Positions 679-63,915 of a DNA stretch of 64,000 bases are shown here, piece by piece. Under the pieces are notes generated by a model. The model had not been told where the DNA came from. It worked only from the letters and a program-made list of their open reading frames with translations, and searched no databases. Origin of the DNA: a virus; IMG/VR virus record IMGVR_UViG_3300014720_000016; one strand, given 5' to 3'. Within the stretch, counting starts at the first letter, position 1. Each line of letters starts with the position of its first letter. The position numbers were made by a program, and so were the translations under genes.

Positions 679-710
679 GGATCGGGCGGCGCCGGGTTTA
701 GGCCCGGCCC
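679..710 (-). promoter_or_regulatory. Conserved 32-bp TAAA-N13-GATCC element, copy 1 (putative phage promoter)
   Basis: Minus strand GGGCCGGGCC TAAA CCCGGCGCCG CCCGATCC, 4 nt after the 715 stop. Confidence 0.75.
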
Positions 711-714
711 GTCC

Positions 715-2043
715 TCACTCGAAATCAGAAAGCTTGTGTACATGCGAATCGGCAGGGATACCATAATCCCTAGAGCCGCCCGCTGTCAGGAACCAGTGCC
801 AGCGTTTTGGCTTTTCTGGATGCACATCGTTGCCATAGCCGTCACTCAACACCCATACCGCGTGCGGGTAAGCGGAGTCTTTCTCGGCCATCTCTGCCTG
901 AATACGTCGCTCGATAATGCTAAAGCTGGTTCCTCCTCCCCCGTAAACTTTTGCAGTTTTTAGATCTGTCTCATATACGCGGGTATCAAAGCAGTACAGC
1001 TTGACATCAAACCGGCGTGGGTCAAGTGTGCGTGCAGCCTTGAAAAACCGCTCTGCATAGCTAATGCAGCTGCCACTTGTATCAAGAAAGAATGAAACTC
1101 TAATCCGCTTTTTCTCGTCGCCCTCGCTCTCGCCGAGCGCAGGTAGCATACAATCGCCCATCATTGACGGATCAATTCGGCGGCTCTGCTGTGTCCAAAC
1201 AGGGGCTTCTGCAAACTCATCTGCGGCACGCAGTGCCCATTTCTTGACTACGCTTTCCCAACGGGGTTTAGGTCGAATCCATTTCGCAGATGCAATCTCG
1301 AGAACCGTATCACCCGGATGCTTACCAGCACGCAGCCCCTTGGCTGCGGCAGCTGCACTCTTCTCCATCTCTGGAGTTGCGTCAGATCCGGCCATTTCAG
1401 CCAGTTCTTCCGTATTGCCAGAGTCAAGTGTGCGCTTAAGCATGTCGGCCAGATCACCCCCGCCGAATCCTGCGAGATCCCTGTGATCATCTACGGTTTG
1501 TGGCCTGCCACCTCCTTCGCCAGATTCCCGGTTAGGGCTAGCCTTGTTCTTTAGCTTTGCCTCGGGATTTTTACTCAGCAGAGCGTTGGCATAATATTCA
1601 AAACTTTTACCAGCTGGCTCGCCAGGCAGGACTTCATCTAGCCAGATATACCGCACGCCATCTGGCTCAACCTCGTCACGACGAAAACCATAGTGGCTTT
1701 CAAGATGCGAGTTGACCGCAATATCCATCGCAGCATTCAGTGTGCCTGGATCTACAGTCTTAAGCAGCTCAGTAGAGCGAATGCCGTGACTAAAGATGAC
1801 GTGCATACACTCGTGGGCAATGGCAAAAAGCTTGCCCTTTTCTGACAGGGTGCCCCAGAAATCTGGATTGACTGACCACATGATCTGCTGTCCGGCCTTG
1901 TCAAAGGCTACGGCGCACGTCGGGATCTCCCGCGTTACAGTCGGCTTTCCCATCGACCAGAATTTAGAAAAAACCGAGTGGTAGTCCTCTAGCTGTTTTG
2001 CTAGACTCGACCACTCGTCATCTGATAGGCACTCAGTCGACAT
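715..2043 (-). CDS. HEXXH metallopeptidase-like + vWA domain protein (DUF2201-like), partner of MoxR ATPase
   Basis: AHECMH zincin motif, NAAMDIAVN, MIDAS motif LDTSGS, GGGGTSF, LSDGY; adjacent to an AAA gene. Confidence 0.85.
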   Translation of the reverse strand: MSTECLSDDEWSSLAKQLEDYHSVFSKFWSMGKPTVTREIPTCAVAFDKAGQQIMWSVNPDFWGTLSEKGKLFAIAHECMHVIFSHGIRSTELLKTVDPGTLNAAMDIAVNSHLESHYGFRRDEVEPDGVRYIWLDEVLPGEPAGKSFEYYANALLSKNPEAKLKNKASPNRESGEGGGRPQTVDDHRDLAGFGGGDLADMLKRTLDSGNTEELAEMAGSDATPEMEKSAAAAAKGLRAGKHPGDTVLEIASAKWIRPKPRWESVVKKWALRAADEFAEAPVWTQQSRRIDPSMMGDCMLPALGESEGDEKKRIRVSFFLDTSGSCISYAERFFKAARTLDPRRFDVKLYCFDTRVYETDLKTAKVYGGGGTSFSIIERRIQAEMAEKDSAYPHAVWVLSDGYGNDVHPEKPKRWHWFLTAGGSRDYGIPADSHVHKLSDFE

Positions 2044-2053
2044 TGCTACTCCG

Positions 2054-3328
2054 TCAGATAATCTTTAGCTCGCGGGCAACCTCGGAGATCAGCTCTCGAT
2101 TAATCGCAATCTGCGTTGCCTTGACAATAAGCTGACGCATTACTTCGTCAGCAGAGATGGCCTTGCGATTGGTCTTTAGCAGTTCCTGCAACTCCTCGCG
2201 ACCGAGCGTAGGCTGAAAAAGCACGCCTAGCTGGCGCTTCAGGGTTTCGCTGTTTACGCCATCCTGTCTGGCCTTGGCAGTAATCTTTTTCTGCGCTTCT
2301 TTCTTAGCCTTCTCGATTGCCGAGGCGAATGCCTTAATCGAATCTGCCACGCCCTTGTCAGCGGTCTTGGAAGGCGGACTCTTTGAAATCTCCGCAGCTA
2401 GTGATGTGAATCGGGAATCGCCAGTCATGATACGCTCGACAATAAAACCACGAACGCTAGCCACACTGCACTTGTTTACGATCTCCTCGTCGGTCATGGC
2501 TTCGATCATTGCCACGGGGAACTTGCCCTCTAGGATCTCGCCCATGACAAGATCCCGCAGATTCCCGTTGCCCTGGATCTCTTTGCGCAGGCCATTCACG
2601 TCCAGCTTGCGGAGCTGTGGAAGCCGGCTCATTAGCCCAGACTTGTTAAGCTCGGCTTTTAGATCTTTTACGTTAACTTCCTTGGGCAGTACGTAGTCAA
2701 TGTCAAGACCAGCTTGGTAGGCCTGGATTGCATACTCTAGACGGCGGGGCGAAACAACGCTTTTCTTTCGCAGCTTCTCGTCAATCTTGCCCCACCAGCG
2801 GTGAGCAATCTCGCCCAGTACGCCATAGGTATCCTTGAAATATTTAAGGGAAGGGCCGTTGGGTAGGACAACCTTGATCTGAAAGCGATCTTCTTGAGCG
2901 GGATCAAGCCGGTCAACATCATAGGTATCCTCCTCATCGTGAGGATTGACCATCGCCCAGATCATCTTGAGATTGGGCATTGGCACGCCATTGATCGACT
3001 TGAACTGGATCGCTTCCATCAGGGCATTGCGCACCTTCTTTGGAGCACGATTGAACTCGTCTACAACGATAACCTGGATGTCGTTGTTGGCGAATACCTT
3101 GGGCTTGATAAAGTCAAGCCAGCGACCGTTCTCGTCTTCAACTACCCTAGGAACGCCTACAAAATCTACGAACGGGTCCATGGTTGATGCTGAGAAGTAG
3201 GCATACTTAATGCCATTGCGCTTCATGGCAGCCAGCACTTGCTCGGTCTTGCCAATCCCATGAGGGCCGACAAGGAGGACATTCTGCGATGTCCGAATCC
3301 AATCATCTAGCAGTTTCTCGGTAAGCAT
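2054..3328 (-). CDS. MoxR-type AAA+ ATPase
   Basis: Walker A GPHGIGKT, Walker B VVDEFNR, LDPAQEDRF, SPRR. Confidence 0.88.
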   Translation of the reverse strand: MLTEKLLDDWIRTSQNVLLVGPHGIGKTEQVLAAMKRNGIKYAYFSASTMDPFVDFVGVPRVVEDENGRWLDFIKPKVFANNDIQVIVVDEFNRAPKKVRNALMEAIQFKSINGVPMPNLKMIWAMVNPHDEEDTYDVDRLDPAQEDRFQIKVVLPNGPSLKYFKDTYGVLGEIAHRWWGKIDEKLRKKSVVSPRRLEYAIQAYQAGLDIDYVLPKEVNVKDLKAELNKSGLMSRLPQLRKLDVNGLRKEIQGNGNLRDLVMGEILEGKFPVAMIEAMTDEEIVNKCSVASVRGFIVERIMTGDSRFTSLAAEISKSPPSKTADKGVADSIKAFASAIEKAKKEAQKKITAKARQDGVNSETLKRQLGVLFQPTLGREELQELLKTNRKAISADEVMRQLIVKATQIAINRELISEVARELKII

Positions 3329-3361
3329 TTGCGTTGTCCTTTGCGGGGTCGTCGTCGGAGG

Positions 3362-3393
3362 GGATCGGGCGGGACCGGGTTTAGGCCCGACCC
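3362..3393 (-). promoter_or_regulatory. 32-bp element, copy 2
   Basis: GGGTCGGGCC TAAA CCCGGTCCCG CCCGATCC, 34 nt upstream of ATG 3328. Confidence 0.75.
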
Positions 3394-3396
3394 GGC

Positions 3397-3897
3397 CTAG
3401 CGGGCGAGAGCAGGCAGAATAAAGTCCGTATTAAATTGACCAAATGAACCCGTGCAGATCTGCTCAGGCTTTACCCATTTTACGAGTGCGCCTTCAGAAT
3501 TGACATGATCCCGTACGTCTCCAAAGATCTCAGCGCGGTAGATAAAAACTTTGATGGTGCCTACGTCAGCAATCCCAACTAGGAAAGGGTTGCATAACGT
3601 AGCACCTGTTTCCTCTACAGCCTCACGACATGCGGCTGTCAGCGGTGTCTCGCCCGCTTCGATCTTGCCGCCTGGCAAACCTAGATCAGAGTGATCATCC
3701 TTCCTGCTAACCGCTAGGATCAAGCCATCCTGCTCTACGATAATAACAGAAGCACTGCCGTCAGGAAAAGAGCTGTTGTAATTTTGCTTTTTTCTCATTC
3801 CGCTGGCTTTCATTGGTGGCAGAGCTGACCAGATTAATTGCTCGCTAGCAGCTCGCTGCTTCAGCTTTGTTGTGCTTACACTGTCACAATTGATCAT
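3397..3897 (-). CDS. Nudix hydrolase
   Basis: Nudix box GGKIEAGETPLTAACREAVEETG; true start may be internal. Confidence 0.9.
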   Translation of the reverse strand: MINCDSVSTTKLKQRAASEQLIWSALPPMKASGMRKKQNYNSSFPDGSASVIIVEQDGLILAVSRKDDHSDLGLPGGKIEAGETPLTAACREAVEETGATLCNPFLVGIADVGTIKVFIYRAEIFGDVRDHVNSEGALVKWVKPEQICTGSFGQFNTDFILPALAR

Positions 3898-6467: not shown

Positions 6468-6470
6468 CTT

Positions 6471-7349: not shown

Positions 7350-7379
7350 ATTGCCTCCGGTGGTGCGGTACGCCGAGGG

Positions 7380-7411
7380 GGATCGGGCGGGGCCGGGTTT
7401 AGGCCGGCCCC
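7380..7411 (-). promoter_or_regulatory. 32-bp element, copy 3
   Basis: GGGGCCGGCC TAAA CCCGGCCCCG CCCGATCC, 31 nt upstream of ATG 7349. Confidence 0.75.
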
Positions 7412-7422
7412 GCCCTGCGACT

Positions 7423-9858: not shown

Positions 9859-9894
9859 CCTTGTTGCTGTATGGCGACCCCGCATCGGCGGACG

Positions 9895-9926
9895 GGATCG
9901 GCGGGGGCCGGGTTTAGGCCCGGCCC
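9895..9926 (-). promoter_or_regulatory. 32-bp element, copy 4
   Basis: GGGCCGGGCC TAAA CCCGGCCCCC GCCGATCC, 6 nt after the 9933 stop. Confidence 0.75.
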
Positions 9927-9932
9927 GTGATG

Positions 9933-16457: not shown

Positions 16458-16530
16458 ACCGCTACTCCTTGCCTGCAAGCAGTGGCTTGCAGCTTGCCTT
16501 GCAGCCGGTAGCGGCGCGGTACGCCGCTGT

Positions 16531-16562
16531 GGATCGGGCGGGACCGGGTTTAGGCCCGGCCC
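16531..16562 (-). promoter_or_regulatory. 32-bp element, copy 5
   Basis: GGGCCGGGCC TAAA CCCGGTCCCG CCCGATCC. Confidence 0.75.
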
Positions 16563-16625
16563 GTCCTGCTATTCGCCTATCCTAGCGCGGGAGCCGAGCT
16601 CGCAGCCGTGAACCTAGGATAGCAC

Positions 16626-21009: not shown

Positions 21010-21095
21010 GTGTATTCCTTTCTTTTATGCTTCACTGAAACTAAGCTCCCGCCTGCGCGCTGGACTTATTCACCGGGCGGGCCGGTCGCCCGACA

Positions 21096-21127
21096 GGATC
21101 GCCCCCGCCCGGCTTTAGGCCCGCCTC
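21096..21127 (-). promoter_or_regulatory. 32-bp element, copy 6
   Basis: GAGGCGGGCC TAAA GCCGGGCGGG GGCGATCC. Confidence 0.7.
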
Positions 21128-21135
21128 GGCTAGCA

Positions 21136-24220: not shown

Positions 24221-24434
24221 TGCTATGTCCTATATGCCTACAGGCATTTTAGAGATTTATTCTTCTACTTCAGGCTCAACTACTTGAAGCCCAAGCTCGG
24301 GAAGGGGCATGTTGTCTGCCTTCCGTTCTGGGAGCACCGCCTCTTCCGCGTTCTGAATCACTACCACTTCACCGGGAGAAATATCAAAAACTACGATTGG
24401 CATGGCTGCCTCCGTGGTGCGGTTGTGCCCGACT

Positions 24435-24466
24435 GGATCGGGGCGGCCCGGCCCGCTCTGGCATTC
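24435..24466 (-). promoter_or_regulatory. Degenerate 32-bp element (copy 7, lacks TAAA)
   Basis: CCGGGCCGCCCCGATCC half retained, 32 nt upstream of a GGAGG-preceded ATG at 24403. Confidence 0.4.
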
Positions 24467-24504
24467 TACCTAATATATTACATAATATTTAGCATCAGAT
24501 GCCT

Positions 24505-25059
24505 TCAGTACCTGCACTCGGGATGACGCAAGAATAGAGGGCGATAACCAACGAGCTTGCCATGAAGCGCTTCTGAGGTTGTCCTTCCAACATAGACCCA
24601 ATGCCACGGTTCCTTGGGCGCGGTATTCACCCAGCCTAATTCTGGTCCGACGCGAGCAAGCCACCTATAGGTTTCTGATCGGGACCTCTTTCGGCGCTTC
24701 TTGCCGCAACGCACGGAGGTATTGGACAGATCAAGCGCAATTCCAGCCTGATGAGAGCTCAGTCCTAATGGAGCTGCCCATCGTCGCCGCTGTCGTAACA
24801 TGCGCCTCTGCTCACTAGAGCTGCGATAGGCAGAATTGATTTCCCAGTGAATGCCGTCAGTTTCCGCCCGCGCTACTAATTCCTGGTAAGCATCTGCGGC
24901 ATCTTGCCGCAGTATGTAGTCCTGGCCATCTGGACCTGTTCCTATTTTCTTTCCCCAGAATGGAGCCTTGTAACCATCGCTATAAGCATCTTCGACATAG
25001 CGCAGGTTGTAACCTAGGTCTGCGTAAAACGAAAAGACAAGGACAAGATGAAATATCAT
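24505..25059 (-). CDS. Peptidase M15B (VanY-like D-Ala-D-Ala carboxypeptidase/endolysin family)
   Basis: SAYRS, SSHQAGIALD (SxHxxGxAxD), EPWHW; hydrophobic N-terminus. Confidence 0.88.
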   Translation of the reverse strand: MIFHLVLVFSFYADLGYNLRYVEDAYSDGYKAPFWGKKIGTGPDGQDYILRQDAADAYQELVARAETDGIHWEINSAYRSSSEQRRMLRQRRRWAAPLGLSSHQAGIALDLSNTSVRCGKKRRKRSRSETYRWLARVGPELGWVNTAPKEPWHWVYVGRTTSEALHGKLVGYRPLFLRHPECRY

Positions 25060-30106: not shown

Positions 30107-30224
30107 ATTTTTACCTTCATCCCGCCTCGCAATCCGAAACGGGCTCTGTCTGGAAGTATTTTGCGGGCGCATAGCACGCGGAGTGCTGTATCTTACTGCT
30201 TTTCTGCCCGCCTTCGCCACTAAG

Positions 30225-30256
30225 GGATCAGGCGGGACCGGGTTTAGGCCCGACCC
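30225..30256 (-). promoter_or_regulatory. 32-bp element, copy 8
   Basis: GGGTCGGGCC TAAA CCCGGTCCCG CCTGATCC. Confidence 0.72.
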
Positions 30257-30280
30257 GTGCTGATATAGGGGCGCAAACCG

Positions 30281-32294: not shown

Positions 32295-32332
32295 ATCTTC
32301 CTTCTTGGAGTGTCGCCGAGCTGCGCCCGCCC

Positions 32333-32364
32333 GGATCGGGGGCGACCGGGTTTAGGCCGGAGCC
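32333..32364 (-). promoter_or_regulatory. 32-bp element, copy 9
   Basis: GGCTCCGGCC TAAA CCCGGTCGCC CCCGATCC, directly after a terminator. Confidence 0.75.
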
Positions 32365-32372
32365 GGCCTAGT

Positions 32373-37153: not shown

Positions 37154-37170
37154 GCCTCACCCGCCCCTCT

Positions 37171-37202
37171 GGATAGGCGCGGCCCGGCTTTAGACCGGAG
37201 CC
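37171..37202 (-). promoter_or_regulatory. 32-bp element, copy 10
   Basis: GGCTCCGGTC TAAA GCCGGGCCGC GCCTATCC; its TAA is the stop codon of the upstream gene. Confidence 0.65.
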
Positions 37203-37474
37203 CGCGCTCTAATTGCCATGGCCCACCACACAGTGATGCTAGGTTTTGTGTAAGGCGTTATTATTTCAAAGCAAGAAAAGCCATTACGCGAATCCCACAC
37301 ATATGACTTATACCCTGCGTCAACCCTAAGCTGGTCAATATAAGGATATGAATCCCTTACTTCTGCCTCGACATTAGGGAGCTTTATGTTAAAGTGTTGC
37401 TCGACGCCAGCCTTAATAGCAGGCAGATCCCGCTCAGCAAAGGCAAGGCGCATCGCATAGTTGTCTAGCTTCAT
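37190..37474 (-). CDS. MKL family A protein
   Basis: MKLDNYAMRLAFAERD...HFN; YVWDSRNGF. Confidence 0.75.
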   Translation of the reverse strand: MKLDNYAMRLAFAERDLPAIKAGVEQHFNIKLPNVEAEVRDSYPYIDQLRVDAGYKSYVWDSRNGFSCFEIITPYTKPSITVWWAMAIRARAPV

Positions 37475-40442: not shown

Positions 40443-40482
40443 ATTTACTCCGTGTGTGGTTTGTGCGCTGTGCCGCCGGTCG

Positions 40483-40514
40483 GGATCGGGCCGCGCCGGC
40501 TTTAGGCCCGGCCC
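40483..40514 (-). promoter_or_regulatory. 32-bp element, copy 11
   Basis: GGGCCGGGCC TAAA GCCGGCGCGG CCCGATCC. Confidence 0.75.
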
Positions 40515-40520
40515 GTACTG

Positions 40521-42615: not shown

Positions 42616-43782
42616 TCAGTCCTTCCACTTCACATTGACAACATCGCCGAACGGAGCCTTGAAACCATCGTTGTTGACCACGACCCACAGGGTGGTGATC
42701 GGACATACGGGTTCGCGGAACAAATAGCCGTCCGTAAAGCACACAACACCACGATAACCATCGGCAACAGCGAGATCAAAGCCGGGCTGCATGTCAGTGC
42801 CGCCACGACCGGGGAAAGCAAGTTGCGCCGAGGGGCGGAACTTCTTGATCTTGCCATGCACGTCGGCATCGCAAAACACAACGTCAATCTGCATGATGCG
42901 AGTCATGAGATTGAGCTGGCCGCCGACATGAGCGAGATACGAATCGCTCATCGAACCCGAGGTGTCAACAATCGCAAGAATCTTATTCTTGACGGTTGTC
43001 TTCTCACCCTGGAACGGGAAGCCGAACCGCTTGCTGAAGCGCTTCCAAGTAAGGCGGCGCTTAGGATCAGCGATGCGAGCCATCCACATGCGGGCCTTGG
43101 CGCGCCAGTCGATGTCATGCGATTCCACTGAAAGAATTTCTTCAATCATGGAATCGGCCATGCTACCGGCCTTGAGCGTGCGGCCACGGTCAGCGTTGCG
43201 ACCCATCAGGTAGCGGCGAGCCATTTCCTTGACGACTCGCGTGCCCGTTGTGTCATCTTCTTCGGACCAACCACTGTGGTCGTCCATGCCGTCACCGAAC
43301 TGATCAGCAACCTCCTGCTCGGAGAACTTTTGCTTCATAAGAGCATAGTACTCTTCCGAAGAAAGGCCGGCAGGGAAGTTGAAGCGCGGATCGGTGTGCG
43401 AGATACAGCCTTCCGGCAGATCCCAGTTGCCATGCTGTGGATCGGTGATCAGCTGATTGATCGCCATGTCCTTAGCAATGTTTTCTGTGCGGCGGCGATC
43501 TGGCTCCATAGTCAGTCGCGTCGTACAGTGCGAAAGCGCAACGTGCAGATACTCGTGCACGATAACGCCAATCTTCTCCCGGACAGAGAAGGAGTTCATC
43601 ATCTTGGGGTTCATAAGCAGCGTGGGCTTGCCATGCTTTACGAAAACACCCGCTGCGAACTTCATCTCCTCGTCTTCGATAATCGTAGACTGGTGGAAGA
43701 AGTAAGCGATGAATGGCTCCTGATCGGTCATCTCCACGATTTCGCCCGTGGAGAGGGACTTAAGATTCAAGAGAGAGGTCAT
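42616..43782 (-). CDS. HEXXH metallopeptidase-like + vWA protein (DUF2201-like), second copy
   Basis: VHEYLH, NIAKDMAIN, VDTSGSM, GRGGTDM, FTDGY. Confidence 0.87.
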   Translation of the reverse strand: MTSLLNLKSLSTGEIVEMTDQEPFIAYFFHQSTIIEDEEMKFAAGVFVKHGKPTLLMNPKMMNSFSVREKIGVIVHEYLHVALSHCTTRLTMEPDRRRTENIAKDMAINQLITDPQHGNWDLPEGCISHTDPRFNFPAGLSSEEYYALMKQKFSEQEVADQFGDGMDDHSGWSEEDDTTGTRVVKEMARRYLMGRNADRGRTLKAGSMADSMIEEILSVESHDIDWRAKARMWMARIADPKRRLTWKRFSKRFGFPFQGEKTTVKNKILAIVDTSGSMSDSYLAHVGGQLNLMTRIMQIDVVFCDADVHGKIKKFRPSAQLAFPGRGGTDMQPGFDLAVADGYRGVVCFTDGYLFREPVCPITTLWVVVNNDGFKAPFGDVVNVKWKD

Positions 43783-43862
43783 ACATATCCTTGGGCTTGG
43801 GTTTCAAAACGCCTGGTCCAACCAGGAACGGCGCCAAGAGCTGAGTCTTGGCGCCGATTGTA

Positions 43863-45029
43863 TCAGACACTCTTCTTCTTGCGACCACGCTTTGGCGCAT
43901 CGTCGCTGTCAGCCGAGTCGGCTGGCGCCTCGGTAGAGGCAGCGGCGGTGGTACCATCGGCGGCGGGCTTAGCGTAGATCTTAGCCTTCGCATCAAGCAG
44001 CGCCCGGACAGCAGCCTTCAGATCAGGGCTCTTGTTGATGATGTCACCGTGACGATCATCAAGTGCCTCGAAGAAGGCCGAGAAGGGCTCGTGACCCATG
44101 CGGCTGTAGAACAGGGCGGCGTTGATGCGCTGCTCGTCCTTGATGTCATCGCGGTTCATCACCTCCATGACATCGCGCAGAGCCTGGATAACCTGGGTAA
44201 GCTGGAAACCCTTGGGGCTCTTGAGCTTGCCGTTGAAGATATCCATGATGTCCAGCGGCTTGAAGTTATCACGAACCCAGCTGGAGAACGTGTTGGCTGC
44301 AACCTCGCCAACAAACGGCGCTGAGTAAACCATCAGGCGGTTGTCGCGGCCAGCAACCTCCGACAGCGAATCACGAGTATCCTCGCGGTTCATCAGGGTA
44401 CGACCGAGGAAGGTCCAGCTACGGCGGCTGGTGACAGCCTCGTTCGGAACACCACGCTTACCCTCGGGAATATCCAGAAGGTTCTTGTGCTGCGTGATGA
44501 ACTGCACAACGGCGGGGTGAACGCCATTGGCAGGGTCGCTGGCCCAGCTAACCCACTCGGAAGAAGTGGGAGTGAACTCGACAATCGCAAAACGATTGCA
44601 GAGAGCCTGGTCGAGCGTAGCAGTCTGGTACTTCAGACCGTTACCGGCAGCGAACACAATCGTGCTATCCGGCAGAGTACGACCGCCAGCACGACGGTCA
44701 AGGGTCAGCTGCATGGCGAGAGGCTGCATGTCCTCACGAGCACGGTCAATCTCGTCGAGGAAGAGAACAGCGTTCTCGAGATCGTACCACCAGGTCGGAG
44801 CAGCGTAGCGGGTAACGACGGTGCCGTCGGCGAGCTTATCGACGAAAGGCATACCGACAAGATCAGCGGGCTCAAGCTCCGACAGGCGGAGGTCAACGAC
44901 CCGCATGCCGCGCTTCTGAGCAATCATTCGCACCACGCTGGACTTACCGAGGCCAGCGTCACCAGTGAGCAGGCGAGCCTGCGTGGTGGGGAGGAGCGAA
45001 TCGAAATCAATGAGCTGCGAGATGTCCAT
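43863..45029 (-). CDS. MoxR-type AAA+ ATPase, second copy
   Basis: GDAGLGKS, DLVGMP, LFLDEIDR, AAGN, LDQALCNRF, SRRSW. Confidence 0.9.
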   Translation of the reverse strand: MDISQLIDFDSLLPTTQARLLTGDAGLGKSSVVRMIAQKRGMRVVDLRLSELEPADLVGMPFVDKLADGTVVTRYAAPTWWYDLENAVLFLDEIDRAREDMQPLAMQLTLDRRAGGRTLPDSTIVFAAGNGLKYQTATLDQALCNRFAIVEFTPTSSEWVSWASDPANGVHPAVVQFITQHKNLLDIPEGKRGVPNEAVTSRRSWTFLGRTLMNREDTRDSLSEVAGRDNRLMVYSAPFVGEVAANTFSSWVRDNFKPLDIMDIFNGKLKSPKGFQLTQVIQALRDVMEVMNRDDIKDEQRINAALFYSRMGHEPFSAFFEALDDRHGDIINKSPDLKAAVRALLDAKAKIYAKPAADGTTAAASTEAPADSADSDDAPKRGRKKKSV

Positions 45030-45213
45030 CTGACTATCCTTGTTTAGGGGTTAACGTGCGTCCTCTTGGACGGTCGGGTTTGGGAGGACTCTGTGCTACC
45101 GACACAACACAGAGCTGTTGAAAAGAACTGGGTACGACCCAGACTCCAAGAGCCAGCCACGCTGGTCTTTCCATACTGCCGTTCGAGCGGTCGGCTCGGC
45201 GGCTCGACCTTCA

Positions 45214-45245
45214 GGATCGGGCGGGGCCGGCTTTAGGCCCGACCC
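45214..45245 (-). promoter_or_regulatory. 32-bp element, copy 12
   Basis: GGGTCGGGCC TAAA GCCGGCCCCG CCCGATCC. Confidence 0.75.
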
Positions 45246-45252
45246 GCCCTGC

Positions 45253-47062: not shown

Positions 47063-47150
47063 TGCTTACCTCTGTTGCTTGTTACCACTATGCGCTATAG
47101 CCTTTCTCAGCATGGCGTTTGACCCGTTGCGGCGGGCCGGTCGCCCCTCG

Positions 47151-47182
47151 GGATCGGGCGGGGCCGGCTTTAGGCCCGCCCC
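47151..47182 (-). promoter_or_regulatory. 32-bp element, copy 13
   Basis: GGGGCGGGCC TAAA GCCGGCCCCG CCCGATCC, divergent from the GT island. Confidence 0.75.
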
Positions 47183-47274
47183 GGCCTGGTAGAAAAACAC
47201 GGTACTCTGATATTAATCCAGCCGGCATTGAAGAGGTCAGCGACTGTAAGTAAGCGGGTCAAGAAGGAGATCGA

Positions 47275-48048
47275 ATGAAAATCTCGGTAATCATGCAGTC
47301 TTACTTGGGCGAATACCCCGGAGCCCGCAGCAACCCCAAATATAAATTTGTACGGGCAGTCAACAGTTTCCTGCTCCAAAAGCATCCCGATAAAGAGCTT
47401 ATCATAGTCTCTGACGGCTGCGAGGACACTAAGGCGCTGTATGAGAACTGCTTCTCATCTTTTTCTAATATCAAATTCGCTTATGTCGGGCGCGGCGATC
47501 TGCCGCGGACTTATGAAGTAAAGGATAACAAGAAGCACTTCCGCGGCATACCACGCGAGGTTGGCAGGACGCTCGCAGACGCTGACCTGATAACTTATAT
47601 GGATGCCGATGACATCATGATGCCATCGCGACTATCGCATATAAATGCAGGCTGGCAAAACGCAGATGCGTCCAAGCTGTGGTCATATAGCACGATTGTT
47701 CTTGAGCCGAAGAACGAAGCATTCAGTGCCGTCTCAAACGATGAGATCGATCTGCGGTTGTTTGGGTTCCCAATCGATACGCCCGTGTCTATACACTCTC
47801 TATGTCCTCCCGGACATATGGCATCCGCGCCATGGCTAATAGTTCACAGGCCGCAGGTGAAAGCCAAGTGGCAGGATACGTTCGACGAGCTTGACGAGAG
47901 CGGAAAGAAGGTTTCTGGTAGTAGCGAAGACGTGCGATTCGTAGACGATCTTTACAAAGAATCCAGCGGCCATAAGTACGACTCGCCTACATACGTTCTC
48001 TGTCACCGTAAAGCTGCGGCATCGGGCCAAGGTTCTTGGGATATATAG
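47275..48048 (+). CDS. GT-A fold (GT2-like) glycosyltransferase
   Basis: ISVIM, ELIIVSDGC, YMDADD (DxD), SED; AAGGAG RBS. Confidence 0.85.
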   Translation: MKISVIMQSYLGEYPGARSNPKYKFVRAVNSFLLQKHPDKELIIVSDGCEDTKALYENCFSSFSNIKFAYVGRGDLPRTYEVKDNKKHFRGIPREVGRTLADADLITYMDADDIMMPSRLSHINAGWQNADASKLWSYSTIVLEPKNEAFSAVSNDEIDLRLFGFPIDTPVSIHSLCPPGHMASAPWLIVHRPQVKAKWQDTFDELDESGKKVSGSSEDVRFVDDLYKESSGHKYDSPTYVLCHRKAAASGQGSWDI

Positions 48049-48057
48049 AGGAAAGTT

Positions 48058-48831
48058 TTGAGGATCTCAGTAATAATGCAGTCTTATCTAGGCGAGTATC
48101 CAGGAGCTAGAAGTAATCCTGGTTATAAGTTCGTGCGGGCCGTCAACAGCTTCCTACTCCAAAGGCACCCAGATAAAGAGCTTGTCATAGTATCTGACGG
48201 CTGCGAAGACACCAAGGCGCTGTACGAAAACTGCTTCTCGGACTTTGAGAATATAAAGTTTGCCTATGTCGGACGTGGAAATATGCCACGGATGAGACAG
48301 GTAAGGGACGGCAAGAGGCACTTCCGCGGCCTGCCGCGACAGGTGGGCCGAACCCTGGCATCAGGAGATATAATCACCTACATGGATGCCGACGACCTAA
48401 TGCTGCCTAATAGATTATCTCAACTCAATAGCGCGTGGCTACAAGCAGGCCCCGACAAAATATGGGCATACAATACAATGGTTGTCCAACCAAAGACACC
48501 TAGCTTTATACTAGCTACAGACTCCCCTATTGATCTGCGCCTATTTGGTTTTCCTATAAACGAGCCGGTGTACGCCGGCCATATGGCAAAGCCCGGATAC
48601 ATGATTGCATCTCCACCTGCCCTGTCTCATAGGCCAGGCGTCAAGAGCGAATGGAAAGATACTTACGAAGAGTCTGATGCAAATGGCAGGAAGATCGCTG
48701 GAGGCAGCGAAGACGCATCCTTTGTAGATGGACTTCGATCAGAAGCTCCCGGCTGCAAGCACGACTCGCCATCGTACGTTGTTTGCCATTACAAAGGCGA
48801 TCCATCGTGCCCAGGCGGCTGGGACATTTAA
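48058..48831 (+). CDS. GT2-like glycosyltransferase, tandem duplicate
   Basis: Same length (257 aa) and near-identical N-terminal half to 47275. Confidence 0.85.
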   Translation: MRISVIMQSYLGEYPGARSNPGYKFVRAVNSFLLQRHPDKELVIVSDGCEDTKALYENCFSDFENIKFAYVGRGNMPRMRQVRDGKRHFRGLPRQVGRTLASGDIITYMDADDLMLPNRLSQLNSAWLQAGPDKIWAYNTMVVQPKTPSFILATDSPIDLRLFGFPINEPVYAGHMAKPGYMIASPPALSHRPGVKSEWKDTYEESDANGRKIAGGSEDASFVDGLRSEAPGCKHDSPSYVVCHYKGDPSCPGGWDI

Positions 48832-48852
48832 TCAAGGATGTAACTGAAAGCT

Positions 48853-50007
48853 ATGACAAAAACAAACTCAAGAAAAGTTCGCATCGCCATAACCATAAAC
48901 CTTACTGACCCGAACGCCTCCTTCTTTGGGAACGGTCTGCGCCAGAACGTAGTGACCCTACGCGACCTTTTTGAGAAGTGCGAGAACGTCTCGGACTCCT
49001 ACATAGTAAACTTCTCTAATACGGTGTTCCCCCCAGATTATAATGGTCCATGGAAGCCATACCTCCAGCATCTAATCTCTTTTGAAGATGCGCTAAAGAA
49101 ATGCGACCTGTTGGTACTGGCTACTGCCAAACCTAACCCTGCCCAGGATGCCAAGATAAAGGCCGCGGGCATCAAGACGGTCAACCACATCATGGGGCCT
49201 GAGTTCGCCATCATGACTGAGCAGATCCTATTTAAGGATGAGAAGCGCGGCCTTTATAGCAGGGATCGGGGCAGCGTATCTGCCACATGGATCTCTCCCC
49301 ATTTCTTTGAGCGAGATCGCTGCCTGTTCGAGACAGTGAACGACTGCCCTTCTTATGAAGCGCCCTATGTCTGGAGCCCGACATTTATCGAGGCAGACGC
49401 ACAGCGACTGAAAGACGGCGATCCTGCCAAGTATCCCGGTAAATACATTCCGGGCCGCAGCGCCAAGCGCATCTCTGTATTCGAGCCAAATATAAACGTC
49501 ATCAAGACGAGCCTCGTCTCGGTAATGGCTATTGAGCGTGCCTACCGTCAGTGGCCAGAAGCGATTGAAACATCAAGCATCTTCTGCACATCTGGCATCG
49601 CAACCAAGCAGGATACCATAGACTTTGTAGGCGGCCTTGATGTCTATCGAGCCAAGAAGATGTTTTTCAATAAGCGCTATCCAATTACCTGGGCGCTACA
49701 AACCCACACAGACATAGTGCTCAGCCACCAGAACCAGTGCGAACTTAATTACTTGTGGCTAGATGCCGCTTGGCTAGGCTACCCCGTAATTCACAACAGC
49801 CCAATGATGCAAGACCTTGGCTGGTACTACCGGGACAATGATATCGCTACCGCAGCCCGGCACATCAAAGACATTGTAGATTCTTTTGATGCTAAGCACG
49901 AGGAGTATCTTCATGCTTCTCGCGGATATGCGCGGCGCTTTATGATCGGCAATCATGCCAACGTACGCGGGTACGAGAAGCTCATCTCTCAGGTCATGGA
50001 TTCCTGA
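48853..50007 (+). CDS. DUF2827-like protein (putative GT-B glycosyltransferase)
   Basis: FGNGLRQN, WISPHF, PYVWSP, FEPNINVIKT, SHQNQCELNYLWLDAAWLGYPVIHNS. Confidence 0.75.
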   Translation: MTKTNSRKVRIAITINLTDPNASFFGNGLRQNVVTLRDLFEKCENVSDSYIVNFSNTVFPPDYNGPWKPYLQHLISFEDALKKCDLLVLATAKPNPAQDAKIKAAGIKTVNHIMGPEFAIMTEQILFKDEKRGLYSRDRGSVSATWISPHFFERDRCLFETVNDCPSYEAPYVWSPTFIEADAQRLKDGDPAKYPGKYIPGRSAKRISVFEPNINVIKTSLVSVMAIERAYRQWPEAIETSSIFCTSGIATKQDTIDFVGGLDVYRAKKMFFNKRYPITWALQTHTDIVLSHQNQCELNYLWLDAAWLGYPVIHNSPMMQDLGWYYRDNDIATAARHIKDIVDSFDAKHEEYLHASRGYARRFMIGNHANVRGYEKLISQVMDS

Positions 50008-50049
50008 TCGGGCTGATGTAAAGGGAATGCTCAAGAAACGAGGTCAACA

Positions 50050-51321
50050 TTGAAACTGATAGCCGTCTATAATGTGCCAGATCTTCCTAACCTGGAGTTC
50101 AACCATCGCAAGTATGCAGACCGCCATGGCTTGCAATTCGAACGAGTGGTTCTTGGAACTGACAGCCTCGCAGAGAGGTACTCCGCTTATCTAGAGGCAC
50201 TACAGAAGAATCCGGGCGAAACAATCATGTTCGTTGACAATCACACATACTTCGCCAACTTTGACTTCCTGCCACAGCCCGAAGGGGACTGTCTGCTCCA
50301 GAAGCATGAAGACACCTACATCACTGGTCTTTTCATAGTAAAGAGTAATGAGGCCACAGCCCTGTGTTTCGAGCAGGCCCTTATGCTAGTCAACAAGCAT
50401 GGCTATATGATGGGCGGGTGGCAAGAGATCAAGCGGAGCAAGATGGTATTCCCGAAAGGCTTCTCTAAAGAATATCCGCATAAACAGGACGGAGTATACC
50501 TGTGCGCAACCGTCTATGCTCACAATAACATATTAACAGTGGCCGATCAAAAGGCGGTGCTCGCGGTCACGTTTGCACACGCAAAGATGAAACCAGACGA
50601 GTGCGATTATTACGCAGAGGCTATGTGCAGCAGGCAAGGCGCATCTCCAGCTATTCCAGCCGAAGGCTTTGAGTGCTTCAACCCAGGCGGCAAGCACGCC
50701 TTTGTAACCATGTACACGCCCAATATCGCTGAGATGGGTATCCTGTCCGAAGAAAATCTAAAACTTTATTGCGCCAAGAACGACATTACCTACTACATCT
50801 ACCGCGGTGTTCCAGCCGATCTAGCTGCTGCCGGCGTAGCAGACGCATGGGTCAAGCCCTGGTTAATCCTAAAGCATTTCGATCCGCACGTCACCGTATC
50901 ATGGATCGATTCAGATATACTTATTGGCCCGGACTGGAAGTTAGACTTCACCCGCGAAGTAGCCTGTTTCAAAGACCCGCTGTTTACTTTCAATTCAGGC
51001 TTTATGATGTTTGCCACTACAGATAAAAATCGTGCGCTGCTGGATGACGTGATCGCTAGCATCCGCGCAATCAACGGCAAGCTGGAAGGGGTATATAACC
51101 ATGGCGGCGATCAGCCCCGGTTTATTGATGCCGTGCTCAAGCACTACCCGGGATATGCTCCGCTAAGCGCGCGCCTCGGCAATACGCATCCGGGCTTTCC
51201 AAGCTCGATACCTCCGGCAGCAACAGACAAGATGCTGCACTTCATGGGGTATGCAAAGCCGATACGGACAGCGCTTATGGCAGGTTACTCCAGTGTGATG
51301 AACCGCAAGTATAAGTGCTAA
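50050..51321 (+). CDS. Glycosyltransferase (GT34/nucleotide-diphospho-sugar transferase-like), duplicated GT-A domains
   Basis: WVKP, WIDSDIL, FNSGFM, GDQ, LHFMG in the C-terminal half; degenerate copy N-terminally. Confidence 0.7.
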   Translation: MKLIAVYNVPDLPNLEFNHRKYADRHGLQFERVVLGTDSLAERYSAYLEALQKNPGETIMFVDNHTYFANFDFLPQPEGDCLLQKHEDTYITGLFIVKSNEATALCFEQALMLVNKHGYMMGGWQEIKRSKMVFPKGFSKEYPHKQDGVYLCATVYAHNNILTVADQKAVLAVTFAHAKMKPDECDYYAEAMCSRQGASPAIPAEGFECFNPGGKHAFVTMYTPNIAEMGILSEENLKLYCAKNDITYYIYRGVPADLAAAGVADAWVKPWLILKHFDPHVTVSWIDSDILIGPDWKLDFTREVACFKDPLFTFNSGFMMFATTDKNRALLDDVIASIRAINGKLEGVYNHGGDQPRFIDAVLKHYPGYAPLSARLGNTHPGFPSSIPPAATDKMLHFMGYAKPIRTALMAGYSSVMNRKYKC

Positions 51322-51335
51322 AAAAGAACCCGCAG

Positions 51336-51758
51336 CTAACGACTGCGGGTTTCTGCTATTTTAGCAGGAGATAGCGCAGGACTACATTCGTCAGCATCTA
51401 TGCCAATACTGGCAAGTGCCTTGATAAAATCCTGCGTTTCTGGCAAGTCACCTACGTTGAATACCGGACAGATGCCGGGCATAGTGGCGATAGTATCGCG
51501 GTTAGCTCGCCAATGGTAGCCATACCGCTGCCCGTCTAAGTGACTGGCAGGAATACAAATCGTGTGATGGTAGGCCCAGTTGCCTTCCGCGTCGCCCCAC
51601 CCGATGAAAATACCAGAGCCATACTTCTTGCTGGAAGTCCTGGGCACGGATTCTAGTGCAGTCATAAGCTGCTCTAAGTGCGGCCACCTGCTGTCAGGAG
51701 GCAGCAACTTGTTTATCTCCAGTATATGAAACTGCATTGCCCAATCATTTAGCTTCAT
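51336..51758 (-). CDS. MKL family B protein
   Basis: MKLNDWA...RWPHLE...GIFIGW...WAYHH...PVFNVGDLPE. Confidence 0.72.
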   Translation of the reverse strand: MKLNDWAMQFHILEINKLLPPDSRWPHLEQLMTALESVPRTSSKKYGSGIFIGWGDAEGNWAYHHTICIPASHLDGQRYGYHWRANRDTIATMPGICPVFNVGDLPETQDFIKALASIGIDADECSPALSPAKIAETRSR

Positions 51759-54918: not shown

Positions 54919-54944
54919 GGCTTCTCCGGGGTTTCTGCACGAGC

Positions 54945-54976
54945 GGATCGGGCCGACCCGGCTTTAGGCCCGGCGC
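54945..54976 (-). promoter_or_regulatory. 32-bp element, copy 14
   Basis: GCGCCGGGCC TAAA GCCGGGTCGG CCCGATCC. Confidence 0.75.
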
Positions 54977-54995
54977 GGCTTGCCGCATTCCGTCC

Positions 54996-57677: not shown

Positions 57678-58012
57678 CGGGTTCTCCGGGGTTGCGGGTT
57701 CGTCGGGCTGGATCGGGCGGCACCGGGTTTAGGCCCGCCCCGGTGTGCCTTCAGGATGCCAGTGCGAATAGCCGCAGCATCTGACAGCACACGCTTGTAG
57801 ACAAGCATCTCGGGCGCATCATCGGGCACGTCATCATGGACCAGTGATGCAGGTACTGAGGAGTAAGCAGACGGCTCGTCGCCATGACGCAGGATTACTG
57901 AGCCTCCCAATACCGAGCGCCAACAATACCAGCCATCTACTTCTTCTCCGTCGAGCAGGTAGTGCCCAGTGAAAAGGCAATAGATGCAGTCGTGACGATA
58001 CTTCGGTTGCAT
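57593..58012 (-). CDS. Hypothetical protein whose frame runs through motif copy 15
   Basis: MQPKYRHDC..C; the C-terminal ~50 aa translate the motif and overlap the next gene. Confidence 0.55.
   Translation of the reverse strand: MQPKYRHDCIYCLFTGHYLLDGEEVDGWYCWRSVLGGSVILRHGDEPSAYSSVPASLVHDDVPDDAPEMLVYKRVLSDAAAIRTGILKAHRGGPKPGAARSSPTNPQPRRTRWTVLIPSILLLLLLAALFLATGVASFA
57710..57741 (-). promoter_or_regulatory. 32-bp element, copy 15
   Basis: GGGGCGGGCC TAAA CCCGGTGCCG CCCGATCC. Confidence 0.75.
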
Positions 58013-59246: not shown

Positions 59247-59292
59247 GGTTACTCCGTTTTGTTTTGCCCGATGGGCCGGGCGGCACCCTCCG

Positions 59293-59324
59293 GGATCGGG
59301 CGGCACCGGCCTTAGGCCCGCCCC
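59293..59324 (-). promoter_or_regulatory. 32-bp element, copy 16
   Basis: GGGGCGGGCC TAAG GCCGGTGCCG CCCGATCC. Confidence 0.7.
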
Positions 59325-59376
59325 GGCATAGCTGCTGTCGGCCTGGCAGCGCATTCGATTTCAAATCCACCTAGCT

Positions 59377-60786: not shown

Positions 60787-60794
60787 GCTCTGCC

Positions 60795-61989: not shown

Positions 61990-62186
61990 GCGCTGCCCTC
62001 GCTGCCCTCCTGCTTATCGGGCTTGCCGTGAGAGGCACCAGACATATAAGCTGCTGTCAGGGCTGCTCGAATCTCCCAGACCGCGAGATCATGGAAGTCC
62101 AGAGCATCGCTACGTCGGGTTTGCAGCGTGGCAACCCCGAGATATTCTTTTGCAATCCGCTCGATCTCTTCGGAAATGTTTGCCAT
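61986..62186 (-). CDS. DUF6900-like small protein
   Basis: IA..YLG..TLQTRRSDALDFHDLAVW.IRAAL.AAY..G. Confidence 0.7.
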   Translation of the reverse strand: MANISEEIERIAKEYLGVATLQTRRSDALDFHDLAVWEIRAALTAAYMSGASHGKPDKQEGSEGSA

Positions 62187-62194
62187 AGTGCACC

Positions 62195-62494
62195 TCATAA
62201 TTTTATTTCTAGTTGCAGGTCAATCGCCAGCGGGCAGTAGATCGCGCACCACGGCTTGGTAATAGGATAGGAACGCGGCTCTTCATAAAAGCCTTCATCG
62301 TTATCCCACCAATAACTGCGCATCTCCGGCATCTGAATAAAGGATTGCCGCAGGCCGGGGAATGCTACTGGGCGCTTCACATCTGCCCGGATCAAAGTAA
62401 TACCCAGCCCGAAGTGGTCCGACATAAGCCGGACTACAGCAGGCCAATCTCCGGCGTCAAACGCCGTGTTCATCAGGTAGGTTGCCAGCTTCAT
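62195..62494 (-). CDS. MKL family A protein
   Basis: MKLATYLMNTAFDAGDWPAVVRLMSDHFG; YWWDNDEGFY. Confidence 0.78.
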   Translation of the reverse strand: MKLATYLMNTAFDAGDWPAVVRLMSDHFGLGITLIRADVKRPVAFPGLRQSFIQMPEMRSYWWDNDEGFYEEPRSYPITKPWCAIYCPLAIDLQLEIKL

Positions 62495-62915
62495 CCTTGG
62501 AAATATCCCAGTAAAAATCTTTAAGCATCTCAGCAGGACCTATTAGGCGGAGACGCATAGTGCTCGCGGTCGCAATCCTGGCTAGGTTTTGCGGACCAAC
62601 AATCAGGGTGGCTAGGTCGACTAGGTTTGTAGCTACCGCAGCATCCAGCTTCGCGACGTAGCGCGGTCTATTGTACCAGTAAATAAAAACCTTGAATGCT
62701 TCGGGAGCTGGTTCTGCACGAGGTGCCCAGCCCATGATACGGCGAGCCGAGTTCGTGCGATTGATTGCGGCATTGCAACCGGCAAACCACGACAGCGCCG
62801 CTTCGGTTCTATGGCCATCTATTGCTGCCGGAGCCAGATTATTGCCTGCTATAAAAGCGGCAAAGTTATCCTGTAACACTTGCAGGCGGAACTCGGGCAT
62901 GGAGTGCAGCTTCAT
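62457..62915 (-). CDS. MKL family C protein
   Basis: Aligns with 54508. Confidence 0.65.
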   Translation of the reverse strand: MKLHSMPEFRLQVLQDNFAAFIAGNNLAPAAIDGHRTEAALSWFAGCNAAINRTNSARRIMGWAPRAEPAPEAFKVFIYWYNRPRYVAKLDAAVATNLVDLATLIVGPQNLARIATASTMRLRLIGPAEMLKDFYWDISKDEAGNLPDEHGV

Positions 62916-62917
62916 GG

Positions 62918-63118
62918 TTACTCGATTGCCTCACGCTGGAAAATACCCATCCACTGGGTACCGCCGGTATAGTCATCGCCGTGGCAAGCCTTGTCTTCCC
63001 AAGGCCATTCCGCAAACCGGGCATCTGCAAAACGGCGAGCAGCAGCATAACTAGCAGCGATCTCAATAATGCGGCCTTCGCGGGCAGCATCACCTGCCTC
63101 TACTACCCATACTGTCAT
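62918..63118 (-). CDS. Hypothetical protein
   Basis: ATGA-coupled. Confidence 0.55.
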   Translation of the reverse strand: MTVWVVEAGDAAREGRIIEIAASYAAARRFADARFAEWPWEDKACHGDDYTGGTQWMGIFQREAIE

Positions 63119-63432
63119 GGCATTCTCCTGTAAGGAACTCTGCCTTCTACTACAATTAACTTGGCTGGCTTGGCTGGCACCGTGATGACCCGCGCTCCAC
63201 CAGTAAGGCGCAGGAATAGAGATCCATCTACACAGGTGAATACAACCGTGTCGTGCGGCGGGCCAAGGCGAACGTGCACACGAAACCAGTAGCTAGCGGG
63301 CCAGTAACTAATATCCCAGCCTTCAGCCGCGCCAAAGTCCTGCCTTGGAAAGTGGCGGGAGAATATTTGCAGAATCCTGGCAACATCGCCTGCCCGTGCT
63401 GCGTCCTCTATATCCCAGGCTTCTAGCTTCAT
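63115..63432 (-). CDS. MKL family A protein
   Basis: MKLEAWDIEDAARAGDVARILQIFSRHFP. Confidence 0.72.
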   Translation of the reverse strand: MKLEAWDIEDAARAGDVARILQIFSRHFPRQDFGAAEGWDISYWPASYWFRVHVRLGPPHDTVVFTCVDGSLFLRLTGGARVITVPAKPAKLIVVEGRVPYRRMP

Positions 63433-63439
63433 GCTGGCC

Positions 63440-63844
63440 TCAGAAAAGGGTAAGGCGGTATCTGCGGTTGTCGATATGGATTACGCCATTGTGATAGGTC
63501 TCATCGGCAGAACAAACTCCGCCATGCTGCATGGCACCGATAACAACAATATGCTCGCGGGCAACGCTAGTAGCCAGCCGCAGGGTAAGTTCTAGGATGG
63601 CAGAAAACGCAACATTCTGTTCAGTGCCAAAGTCAATCGTGAAGGCATTAGCTACCGTTAGTACGCTACCGCTGCGCCGCAGCGGGTAGTCGAGGCGATC
63701 AGCAACCCGCCTAACACCCACATCCTGCCTAACTGCATTTAGCTCAGCGAGCCAGATGTCGTCCAGATAATAGTCAATGCCTTCTTTCATGGCATAGAGG
63801 TTATGTAGTAGCTGCTTGTCCGATTGCTGAAGAAATGAACTCAT
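63440..63844 (-). CDS. Hypothetical protein
   Basis: First gene after motif copy 17. Confidence 0.6.
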   Translation of the reverse strand: MSSFLQQSDKQLLHNLYAMKEGIDYYLDDIWLAELNAVRQDVGVRRVADRLDYPLRRSGSVLTVANAFTIDFGTEQNVAFSAILELTLRLATSVAREHIVVIGAMQHGGVCSADETYHNGVIHIDNRRYRLTLF

Positions 63845-63883
63845 GGCTTCTCACTTTGTTGGTTGCTCCGGGGTTGCTGCTGC

Positions 63884-63915
63884 GGATCGGGCGGGGCCCG
63901 GTTTAGCGCCGGGCC
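63884..63915 (-). promoter_or_regulatory. 32-bp element, copy 17
   Basis: GGCCCGGCGC TAAA CCGGGCCCCG CCCGATCC. Confidence 0.7.

Follow-up and report, generated by a model that had tools for sequence, protein, structure and literature searches.

What does a short GC-rich element do when it recurs on one strand of a viral genome, with the same two boxes at the same distance, ahead of one small gene after another? The element, TAAA-N13-GATCC, stands at seventeen sites, one of them decayed, in the 64,000-nucleotide (nt) stretch of viral DNA under IMG/VR record IMGVR_UViG_3300014720_000016 (the window, meaning the whole stretch throughout). Judging from the letters and their genomic context, it is probably a phage-specific bipartite promoter, and most likely represents a promoter consensus new for an entire clade of jumbo phages from the environment. 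Hardly any uncultured jumbo phage has known promoters, and this one would supply a precise transcription grammar of two boxes, a rigid 13-nt gap and ~75 sites per genome.

Exact TAAA-N13-GATCC occurs 14 times in the window, 14/14 on the minus strand; shuffles average 0.48 occurrences and reach 3 at most. A weight matrix built from the copies found 16 sites (36-60 bits), all on the minus strand and 0 on the plus strand, at the coordinates given in an earlier note on this DNA, which had described 16 full, indel-free copies in one orientation. The variants it listed are real (TAAG at 59293, TATCC at 37171), as is the degenerate site at 24435, where the 3' half alone is kept. MAFFT aligned 56 copies, from the window and from a relative designated G001, with 0 gaps, and conservation extends from about −16 to +23, counted from the T of TAAA, a signal of ~40 bases. 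The earlier note thus had the boxes right and under-described the motif, which reads roughly cAGG-CGGnCC-TAAA-N13-GATCC. CGGnCC, directly 5' of TAAA, is as conserved as the TAAA and GATCC boxes; cAGG at −16 is weakly conserved, and a softer GGCGA block lies ~8 nt past GATCC. The window-type spacer is variable in its letters and 91% G+C. GATC is not avoided elsewhere (observed/expected 0.95), and there is therefore no restriction or Dam explanation.

The element is placed closely between genes. With heuristic start calling, the next start in the window follows at about 10-184 nt, mostly 26-118, in line with the 18-185 nt noted before. Stops of upstream open reading frames (ORFs) are concentrated at −13 to −18 of the motif, which bears out the remark that most copies sit just after a stop: upstream ORFs stop at −13 or −16 in 14 copies, and in others the frame closes within the motif, 5 times at the TAA of CCTAAA and 6 times at the TGA of GATCCTGA. 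A stop is thus available in each of the three frames, and the unit is conserved even where it is coding. The terminator said to lie right before copy 32333 is visible in the sequence.

How the element is distributed over a whole genome was asked of a relative. No near relative of the window came up when phage records were searched by nucleotide sequence, and its protein hits have <42% identity; there is therefore no cultured model phage. A motif scan of IMG/VR yielded G001, a complete, circularly assembled genome of 371,675 bp with a 127-bp end overlap, whose proteins are 25-98% identical to those of the window and largely collinear. What is said here of a whole genome is drawn from G001 and from metagenome fragments and not from the genome to which the window belongs. 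The window matrix found 40 GC-spacer copies in G001, all on the plus strand, in the stretch that runs from 362 kb over the assembly junction to 123 kb, and the total comes to ~75 copies in the small-gene third of the genome. The pattern CTAAA-Nx-GATCY has 77 matches on the plus (gene) strand at x=13 and 0-2 at each other x from 8 to 19, with 0 matches in G001 for the 14-nt gap; at N13 the minus strand has 2. The fixed 13-nt gap is therefore rigid, in G001 as in the window. All real copies lie from 350.8 kb to 123.2 kb across the junction, and none was found in the remaining ~230 kb, which holds large structural and replication-type genes. Because G001 genes are nearly all on the plus strand throughout, including those ~230 kb, the restriction to the small-gene third is real. 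Random orientation or position, which had been named as evidence that would speak against a promoter, was thus not seen: the copies are co-oriented with genes and confined to one region.

The same holds on a wider scale. A stringent pattern identified 63 metagenome loci from several sample series, and a relaxed pattern, applied to these loci, placed 97% of the copies on a single strand per locus, 297 of them on the major strand against 10 on the minor. Among the copies are 218 distinct sequences, and the next start led by a Shine-Dalgarno (SD) sequence lies a median 45 nt away. Their core consensus reads CCGGGCC-TAAA-GCCGG...CGATCC; a TG following GATCC is peculiar to G001. Across 185,579 cellular genomes, one per prokaryotic species, there were 55 scattered single matches and no genome with several copies; within that collection, therefore, the element is no type of cellular promoter, and the scan points to no host.

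Which parts of the element matter is best seen in an array in G001. A relaxed search found 26 further copies at 350.8-361.7 kb (L031, L032) with an AT-rich spacer and the consensus cCGGTCC-TAAA-AACA...yTTTT-GATCCTG. Boxes and gap are as in the window, the spacer is 28% G+C, and there is no fold (−2.9 versus −4.3 kcal/mol for shuffles). Over 75 G001 copies the invariant core is CGGnCCTAAA, a C at +6 and GATCCTG, and the relative L120 has the same array with an intermediate spacer. As AT-type copies keep boxes and gap without a fold, the two boxes and their spacing are therefore the functional core, and the hairpin is optional. Each array unit has the same order: a GC hairpin, often an intrinsic terminator with a T-run, then the motif, 15-45 nt, and the GGAG-ATG of a small ORF. 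The terminators stand 35-55 nt upstream of the motif; a scan for terminator-like sites gave 21 against 8.6 expected, ~10 of them strong and 35-55 nt upstream of a copy. No other conserved sequence was found in array units between terminator and ribosome-binding site.

Two features of this region stand beside the array. The 26 units are monocistronic, and in four units a conserved structured leader, GAGACAGGG...CCCTGTCT, takes the place of an obvious ORF. At G001:361700-363700 lies a non-coding hub of 11 copies 59-140 nt apart, some just 59-81 nt, together with two opposite-strand copies (361888, 362200); L120:6700-8540 is comparable. Several hub copies are followed by a conserved G-rich segment (…CAACGGGACAACCGGGGGCGGG…), present in another relative too. 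The hub may be a small RNA, origin or genome-end region.

Comparison of the two phages ties the element to the gene that follows it. For at least nine of the window copies, G001 has a counterpart at the orthologous junction. In the four informative pairs, in which the neighbours differ (32333/62542, 40483/40637, 45214/42599 and 54945/69429), the motif stays with the downstream gene in 4/4. DNA identity in the pairs 40483/40637 and 45214/42599 is 0.51-0.54 upstream (random 0.50 ± 0.04) and 0.67-0.70 downstream. The downstream gene is replaced in one or two window/G001 pairs, and copy 47151 has no co-oriented gene upstream for 4 kb. Full units also occur in the window: motif 45214 is followed by MoxR, VWA and a terminator with a 14-bp stem, and motif 679 by a small gene and a terminator with a 12-bp stem. 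The copies coincide with replacement and rearrangement breakpoints between the window phage and G001, which, with the stop in each frame, matches the behaviour of promoter-early stem-loop (PeSL) cassettes (PMC4122927).

Taken together, co-orientation, restriction to one region, terminator-motif-SD-ATG units, linkage to the downstream gene and the rigid gap support a phage-specific promoter. That part of the earlier inference gains from the comparative context; the other two, an unusual geometry and an N4-type hairpin, prove weaker, as set out below. The most economical reading is one transcription class that covers the small-gene third and is carried within a portable stem-loop/promoter/leader cassette, in which case the motif would map one temporal gene class in a clade seen on dozens of metagenome contigs.

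We propose that the boxes CGGnCC-TAAA and GATCC (GATCCTG in G001), exactly 13 nt apart, form the promoter, and that a bacterial-type RNA polymerase with a phage-supplied specificity factor, most plausibly sigma-like, would read it. Transcription would start within a few nt past GATCC and give a short C/A-rich leader with GGAG before each gene. In window copies spacer and 5' flank are both GC-rich and complementary to each other, which would fold them into a stem-loop, starting directly behind the stop codon of the preceding gene, with the upstream box in its loop. This stem-loop may be an add-on outside promoter recognition, probably a transcript-end or insulator hairpin for read-through RNA. 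Stem-loop, promoter, leader and SD would then make up a portable cassette where genes are swapped, a compact design in which the stem-loop at the end of one gene houses the promoter of the next, at a site of gene shuffling.

Such boxes have partial likenesses among known promoter classes. Sigma-28 (FliA) promoters, TAAA-N15-GCCGATAA with a gap of 15 (±1) nt, had been brought up for comparison. They share the TAAA(G) upstream box and, with GC-type copies, a downstream box containing CCGAT. The gap here is, however, 5 nt shorter (TAAA-N10-CCCGATCC in all copies), and the conserved CGGnCC is absent from sigma-28 sites. In AT-type copies the CC before GAT is not kept; their downstream box is yTTTTGATCC, with the AA of GCCGATAA replaced by CC. 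We rejected membership in this class on the gap and on GCCGATAA, which is not conserved, only GATCC being common to all classes. The unusual geometry arises only from equating TAAA alone with the sigma-28 −35 box; with CGGnCC included, the boxes are ~22 bp apart centre to centre, on one helix face, which is ordinary for sigma-type promoters.

Promoters of extracytoplasmic function (ECF) sigma factors, for example GGAAC-N16/17-CGT, are likewise bipartite with a very rigid spacer. Taking CGGnCC as the −35 core leaves 16 nt to (C)GATC, and G001 encodes a sigma-like protein with regions 2 and 4; an ECF-like geometry is possible from the sequence. The box sequences differ, to our knowledge, from those of every ECF group, and the sigma candidate, with its cysteine-rich insertion, is only weakly similar. 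In T4 middle promoters the MotA box at −30 stands 12±1 bp from the −10 (for context, PMC2988021). Here too the upstream box is nearer the downstream box than a −35 and the 13-nt gap is similar, but there is no TGCTT box and the window's downstream box is not TAnnnT (position 22 is variable). MotA and AsiA homologues were not found in G001 in searches run without a positive control.

PeSL and PmSL cassettes of T4-like phages (Arbiol 2010; Comeau 2014, PMC4122927) resemble the element in more respects than its boxes. Both are stem-loop/terminator, promoter and SD units repeated in one orientation; both precede small variable genes in hyperplastic regions, with the DNA conserved; and both coincide with gene replacements between related phages. 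They part at the promoter, which in PeSLs is near-consensus sigma-70 or carries a MotA box, whereas the boxes here are unlike sigma-70, and in layout: the PeSL stem-loop lies upstream of the promoter, whereas in GC-type copies the two overlap, the upstream box being the loop and the spacer the 3' arm. The element therefore shares with PeSLs the repeated unit in a small-gene region and the coincidence with breakpoints, and lacks their sigma-70-like or MotA promoter part. Sigma-70-type matches in the window were at chance in two of three scans and, in 20-40 kb, moderately above shuffles, half of them on the non-coding strand. A description of AT-type copies as sigma-70-like sites, AAGACA-N17-TGnTAGRCA, was dropped: it fails for GC-type copies and ignores the best-conserved positions.

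Which protein might read the boxes? The earlier suggestion to look for sigma-factor or RNA polymerase genes, followed up in G001, gave a sigma-like gene and no detectable phage RNA polymerase. Homologues of beta/beta' (PF00623, PF00562) are absent from G001, with controls positive in 14/14 genomes, and no sizeable G001 ORF has a DFDGD-like motif, so a multisubunit RNA polymerase of the phiKZ/AR9 kind is not indicated. PF00940 (T7 family) had no match in G001, in a search without a positive control, and motif B (Rx3Kx6-7YG) is absent from G001 ORFs of 500 amino acids (aa) or more. A single-subunit (T7-like) promoter, with ~20 contiguous bp kept up to the start site, does not describe the element, whose 13-nt centre ranges from 28% to 91% GC. 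Canonical intrinsic terminators point to a bacterial-type polymerase.

The sigma-like gene (G001:177,957-178,745) encodes 262 aa. The protein matches Sigma70_r2 at 19.9 bits, below the cut-off of 24, and sigma-factor PHROGs at 1.8e-4; sigma factors lead its Foldseek matches (best E = 4e-4), followed by ECF SigL, SigH and RpoE. It has a C-terminal LuxR/sigma-4-like helix-turn-helix (HTH), and in place of a recognisable region 3 a cysteine-rich insertion separates regions 2 and 4. The protein is conserved in the clade, with ten homologues in related contigs, several labelled 'sigma24 family' by JGI. On these similarities it is a candidate for a divergent ECF-like sigma factor, one not linked to the motif. 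That a sigma-like protein reads the motif is possible but doubtful; the motif would in any case be a handle for finding the responsible factor, with this candidate in hand. The gene stands in an operon-like row at G001:177177-186807 (L033), tightly packed with a Cas4-like PD-(D/E)XK nuclease and a 2698-aa ORF. A 283-aa G001 protein (122,130-122,981) is a weak lead to a second sigma candidate: it has no Pfam, PHROG, PDB-sequence or Foldseek match, and only VIA-align, searching by structure alone, puts sigma region-2 domains at the top for the 100 residues at its N-terminus (Z 7.2-5.8, under the level at which the tool itself urges caution). Two small G001 proteins carry sigma-4/LuxR-type HTH domains. 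At G001:22499-23074 (L015:2499-3074) a 191-aa protein has a sigma-70 region-4-type HTH (27.4 bits, above cut-off); its frame crosses a motif copy, with the TGA of GATCCTGA as its stop.

Several observations weigh against a sigma-read promoter. The sigma-like gene, with its sub-threshold score, lies in the large-gene region of G001 and was not found in the window. (The G005 and G006 fragments that carry it have no motif, which is uninformative, as they cover only 14-15% of their genomes.) A phage-made sigma would need an earlier promoter for its own gene, and none was identified. In a few copies (G001:62542, 355762; L120) the SD stands only 4-8 nt past GATCC, which leaves little room for a classical −10-to-start distance. 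Extreme conservation (~50 bits) and a CCGG-N8-CCGG dyad, finally, would also fit a dedicated DNA-binding regulator.

Taken further, this last point describes an operator for a dimeric phage regulator (activator, repressor or silencer), the real promoter being made of weaker sequences nearby. The dyad surrounds TAAA in many copies (CACCGG...CCGGTG in L120), conservation goes far beyond the needs of sigma recognition, eleven copies cluster in non-coding DNA, and the small sigma-4/LuxR-type HTH proteins of G001, one of which ends inside a motif copy, would be regulators of the right kind. We nevertheless consider an operator unlikely: motif and spacing persist in the G001 array without the 3' half of the dyad, no other conserved candidate promoter lies between terminator and SD, and neither a single orientation nor a fixed second box 13 nt away is expected of a symmetric site.

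The two-box promoter leaves the palindrome of the GC-type copies to be explained. Some copies had been said to fold with a stem not kept in every copy, and this proved correct: GC-type copies fold better than dinucleotide shuffles (−16.8 versus −12.5 kcal/mol; 49/56), and the 26 AT-spacer copies do not fold. Native pairs of 5' and 3' arms are more stable than swapped ones by 1.2-1.8 kcal/mol, with z = −3.1 for 56 copies and z = −7.4 for 202 metagenome copies, both values inflated by related copies. Stems of 8-12 bp enclose loops of 5-8 nt, and the register drifts: the best fixed register pairs 61.5% of cells, against 57.3% in shuffles, and a register shifted by one pairs 63.7%. The covariation check that had been suggested gave a weak result, with no clean diagonal in a column-wise test. 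There is no sense-strand G-U signature, and the antisense strand has a slight edge in stability among the 56 copies (p = 0.03) that is absent from the larger set (p = 0.13). The stem has no U-tract after it; GATCC follows in all GC-type copies, so these stems fall outside the definition of an intrinsic terminator, while canonical terminators with T-runs are present elsewhere in the same DNA. The palindrome is real but soft and dispensable for the motif itself, with no evidence for an RNA-specific or N4-type role.

A stem-loop acting in RNA, to end, stabilise or process the upstream transcript (as an RNase site, a terminator without U-tract or an antitermination site), would explain the folding, the advantage of native arms and the stop codons at −13 to −18, at the foot of the stem. 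It does not explain why AT-spacer copies without a fold keep both boxes and their spacing, why the motif tracks the downstream and not the upstream gene, or why copy 47151 exists without a co-oriented gene upstream. With the modest pairing, equally good one register along, the missing U-tract, the lack of sense-strand G-U bias and an antisense strand that is as stable or slightly more so, we judge this explanation improbable.

A two-box promoter could also have a reader without recognisable relatives. This might be a virion-delivered RNA polymerase among the giant proteins, or a zinc-ribbon-bearing sigma with a grammar of 10+7 bp and a 13-nt gap, the 40 nt of GC-type copies then serving as DNA promoter and RNA transcript-end hairpin at once; we give this little credence. 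G001 has giant ORFs of 2698, 2397 and 2056 aa; those of 2698 and 2056 aa have no PHROG or Pfam match, and that of 2698 aa no PDB sequence match either. If true, an unrecognised reader would mean that a widespread clade of environmental jumbo phages has a transcription system of a new kind.

The N4-type promoter mentioned before, an extruded GC stem read by a virion-borne single-subunit RNA polymerase, is very improbable. N4 hairpin promoters have a 5-7 bp stem and a 3-nt loop. Like N4 early promoters, the element carries a conserved, loop-centred sequence ahead of genes on a short stem-loop rich in GC; folding is slightly better for the antisense strand among the 56 copies, and two of the G001 giant ORFs are without a detectable homologue. 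Yet the stem is dispensable, being absent from the entire AT-spacer class of 26 copies, on which ground we rejected membership; stem size and loop differ, the registers drift and covariation is weak; the antisense bias is gone in the larger set; and no N4-like virion RNA polymerase was detected, the searches for T7/N4 motif B and PF00940 being those given above. Just as improbable is a pure recombination or mobility site (cassette boundary, recombinase or homing-enzyme target) with no expression role. It would account for the coinciding breakpoints, the stops in three frames and the 11 upstream ORFs that end inside the unit, but does not by itself explain why the element keeps a fixed place 20-50 nt before SD-led starts and one orientation over 130 kb, or why it recurs in terminator-motif-gene units; recombination at conserved promoters is a known by-product in PeSLs (PMC4122927).

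The individual window copies, numbered 1-16 without the decayed site, are all on the minus strand. Copy 1 (677-716), of the GC-spacer type, has an upstream ORF stop at −14 and leads to a small gene and then a strong terminator at 388-362. Copy 2 (3360-3399) heads a MoxR-like ATPase/VWA-like pair and has its orthologous copy at G001:96223; copy 3 (7378-7417), with a perfect 12-bp palindrome around CCTAAAC, has its own at G001:92209. Copy 4 (9893-9932) corresponds to G001:89733, after the same upstream gene and with a different downstream gene. Copies 5 (16529-16568) and 16 (63882-63921) were found by both pattern and matrix scans. Orthologous copies of 6 (21094-21133) and 14 (57708-57747) lie at G001:79338 and G001:36279. 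Copy 7 (30223-30262) is upstream of the RNA ligase gene. Copy 8 (32331-32370), directly after an intrinsic terminator, stays with its downstream gene in G001 (62542), as do copy 13 (54943-54982; G001 69429) and copy 10 (40481-40520; G001 40637), the last with a different upstream neighbour. At copy 9 (37169-37208), the TATCC variant, the upstream frame ends at the motif's TAA. Copy 11 (45212-45251), orthologous to G001:42599, heads a MoxR ATPase/VWA operon that ends at a terminator at 42363-42332. Copy 12 (47149-47188), in a divergent intergenic region, heads the minus-strand block beside a plus-strand glycosyltransferase island, and copy 15 (59291-59330), the TAAG variant, is seen in the sequence and the matrix scan.

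The decayed copy (24433-24472, minus strand) keeps its 3' half, GCCCCGATCC and leader, and its 5' half, including TAAA, is now AT-rich; G001:72583 is intact. Over 24433-24505, CGGnCC-TAAA has been lost to an AT-rich segment (…TATATTAGGTAGAAT…), with GCCCCGATCC, leader and SD kept; the one gene concerned may have switched its promoter class.

The window as a whole holds ~106 genes, mostly small and on the minus strand; those with a recognisable product include two MoxR-ATPase/VWA pairs, an RNA ligase, an M16 peptidase and a trigger-factor-like protein. Searches of this DNA for Rfam families and tRNAs gave no matches. The two pairs, of a MoxR-type AAA ATPase and DUF2201/VWA, are paralogous and lie on the minus strand at 715-3328 and 42616-45029, headed by 3362 and 45214; the second shares 92-98% identity with G001, well beyond what the window shows on average. 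The glycosyltransferase island on the plus strand (47275-51321) is motif-free and contains two 257-aa paralogues, DUF2827 and one more gene. Upstream of it, within 47193-47274, TGATATTAAT (47208-47217, plus strand) resembles an extended −10, and a bidirectional terminator at 51326-51352 closes the island. In G001, an FtsK/SpoIIIE-type ATPase lies at 119235-120257 and a homologue of mycobacteriophage L5 gp82 (PF25735, 1.7e-31) at 121321-121701 (L020:1321-1701). In G001:170000-257000, part of the large-gene region, CTATTAA is enriched in intergenic DNA (8 versus 0.3 expected), often right after terminators, and is a candidate for a second, perhaps late, promoter element.

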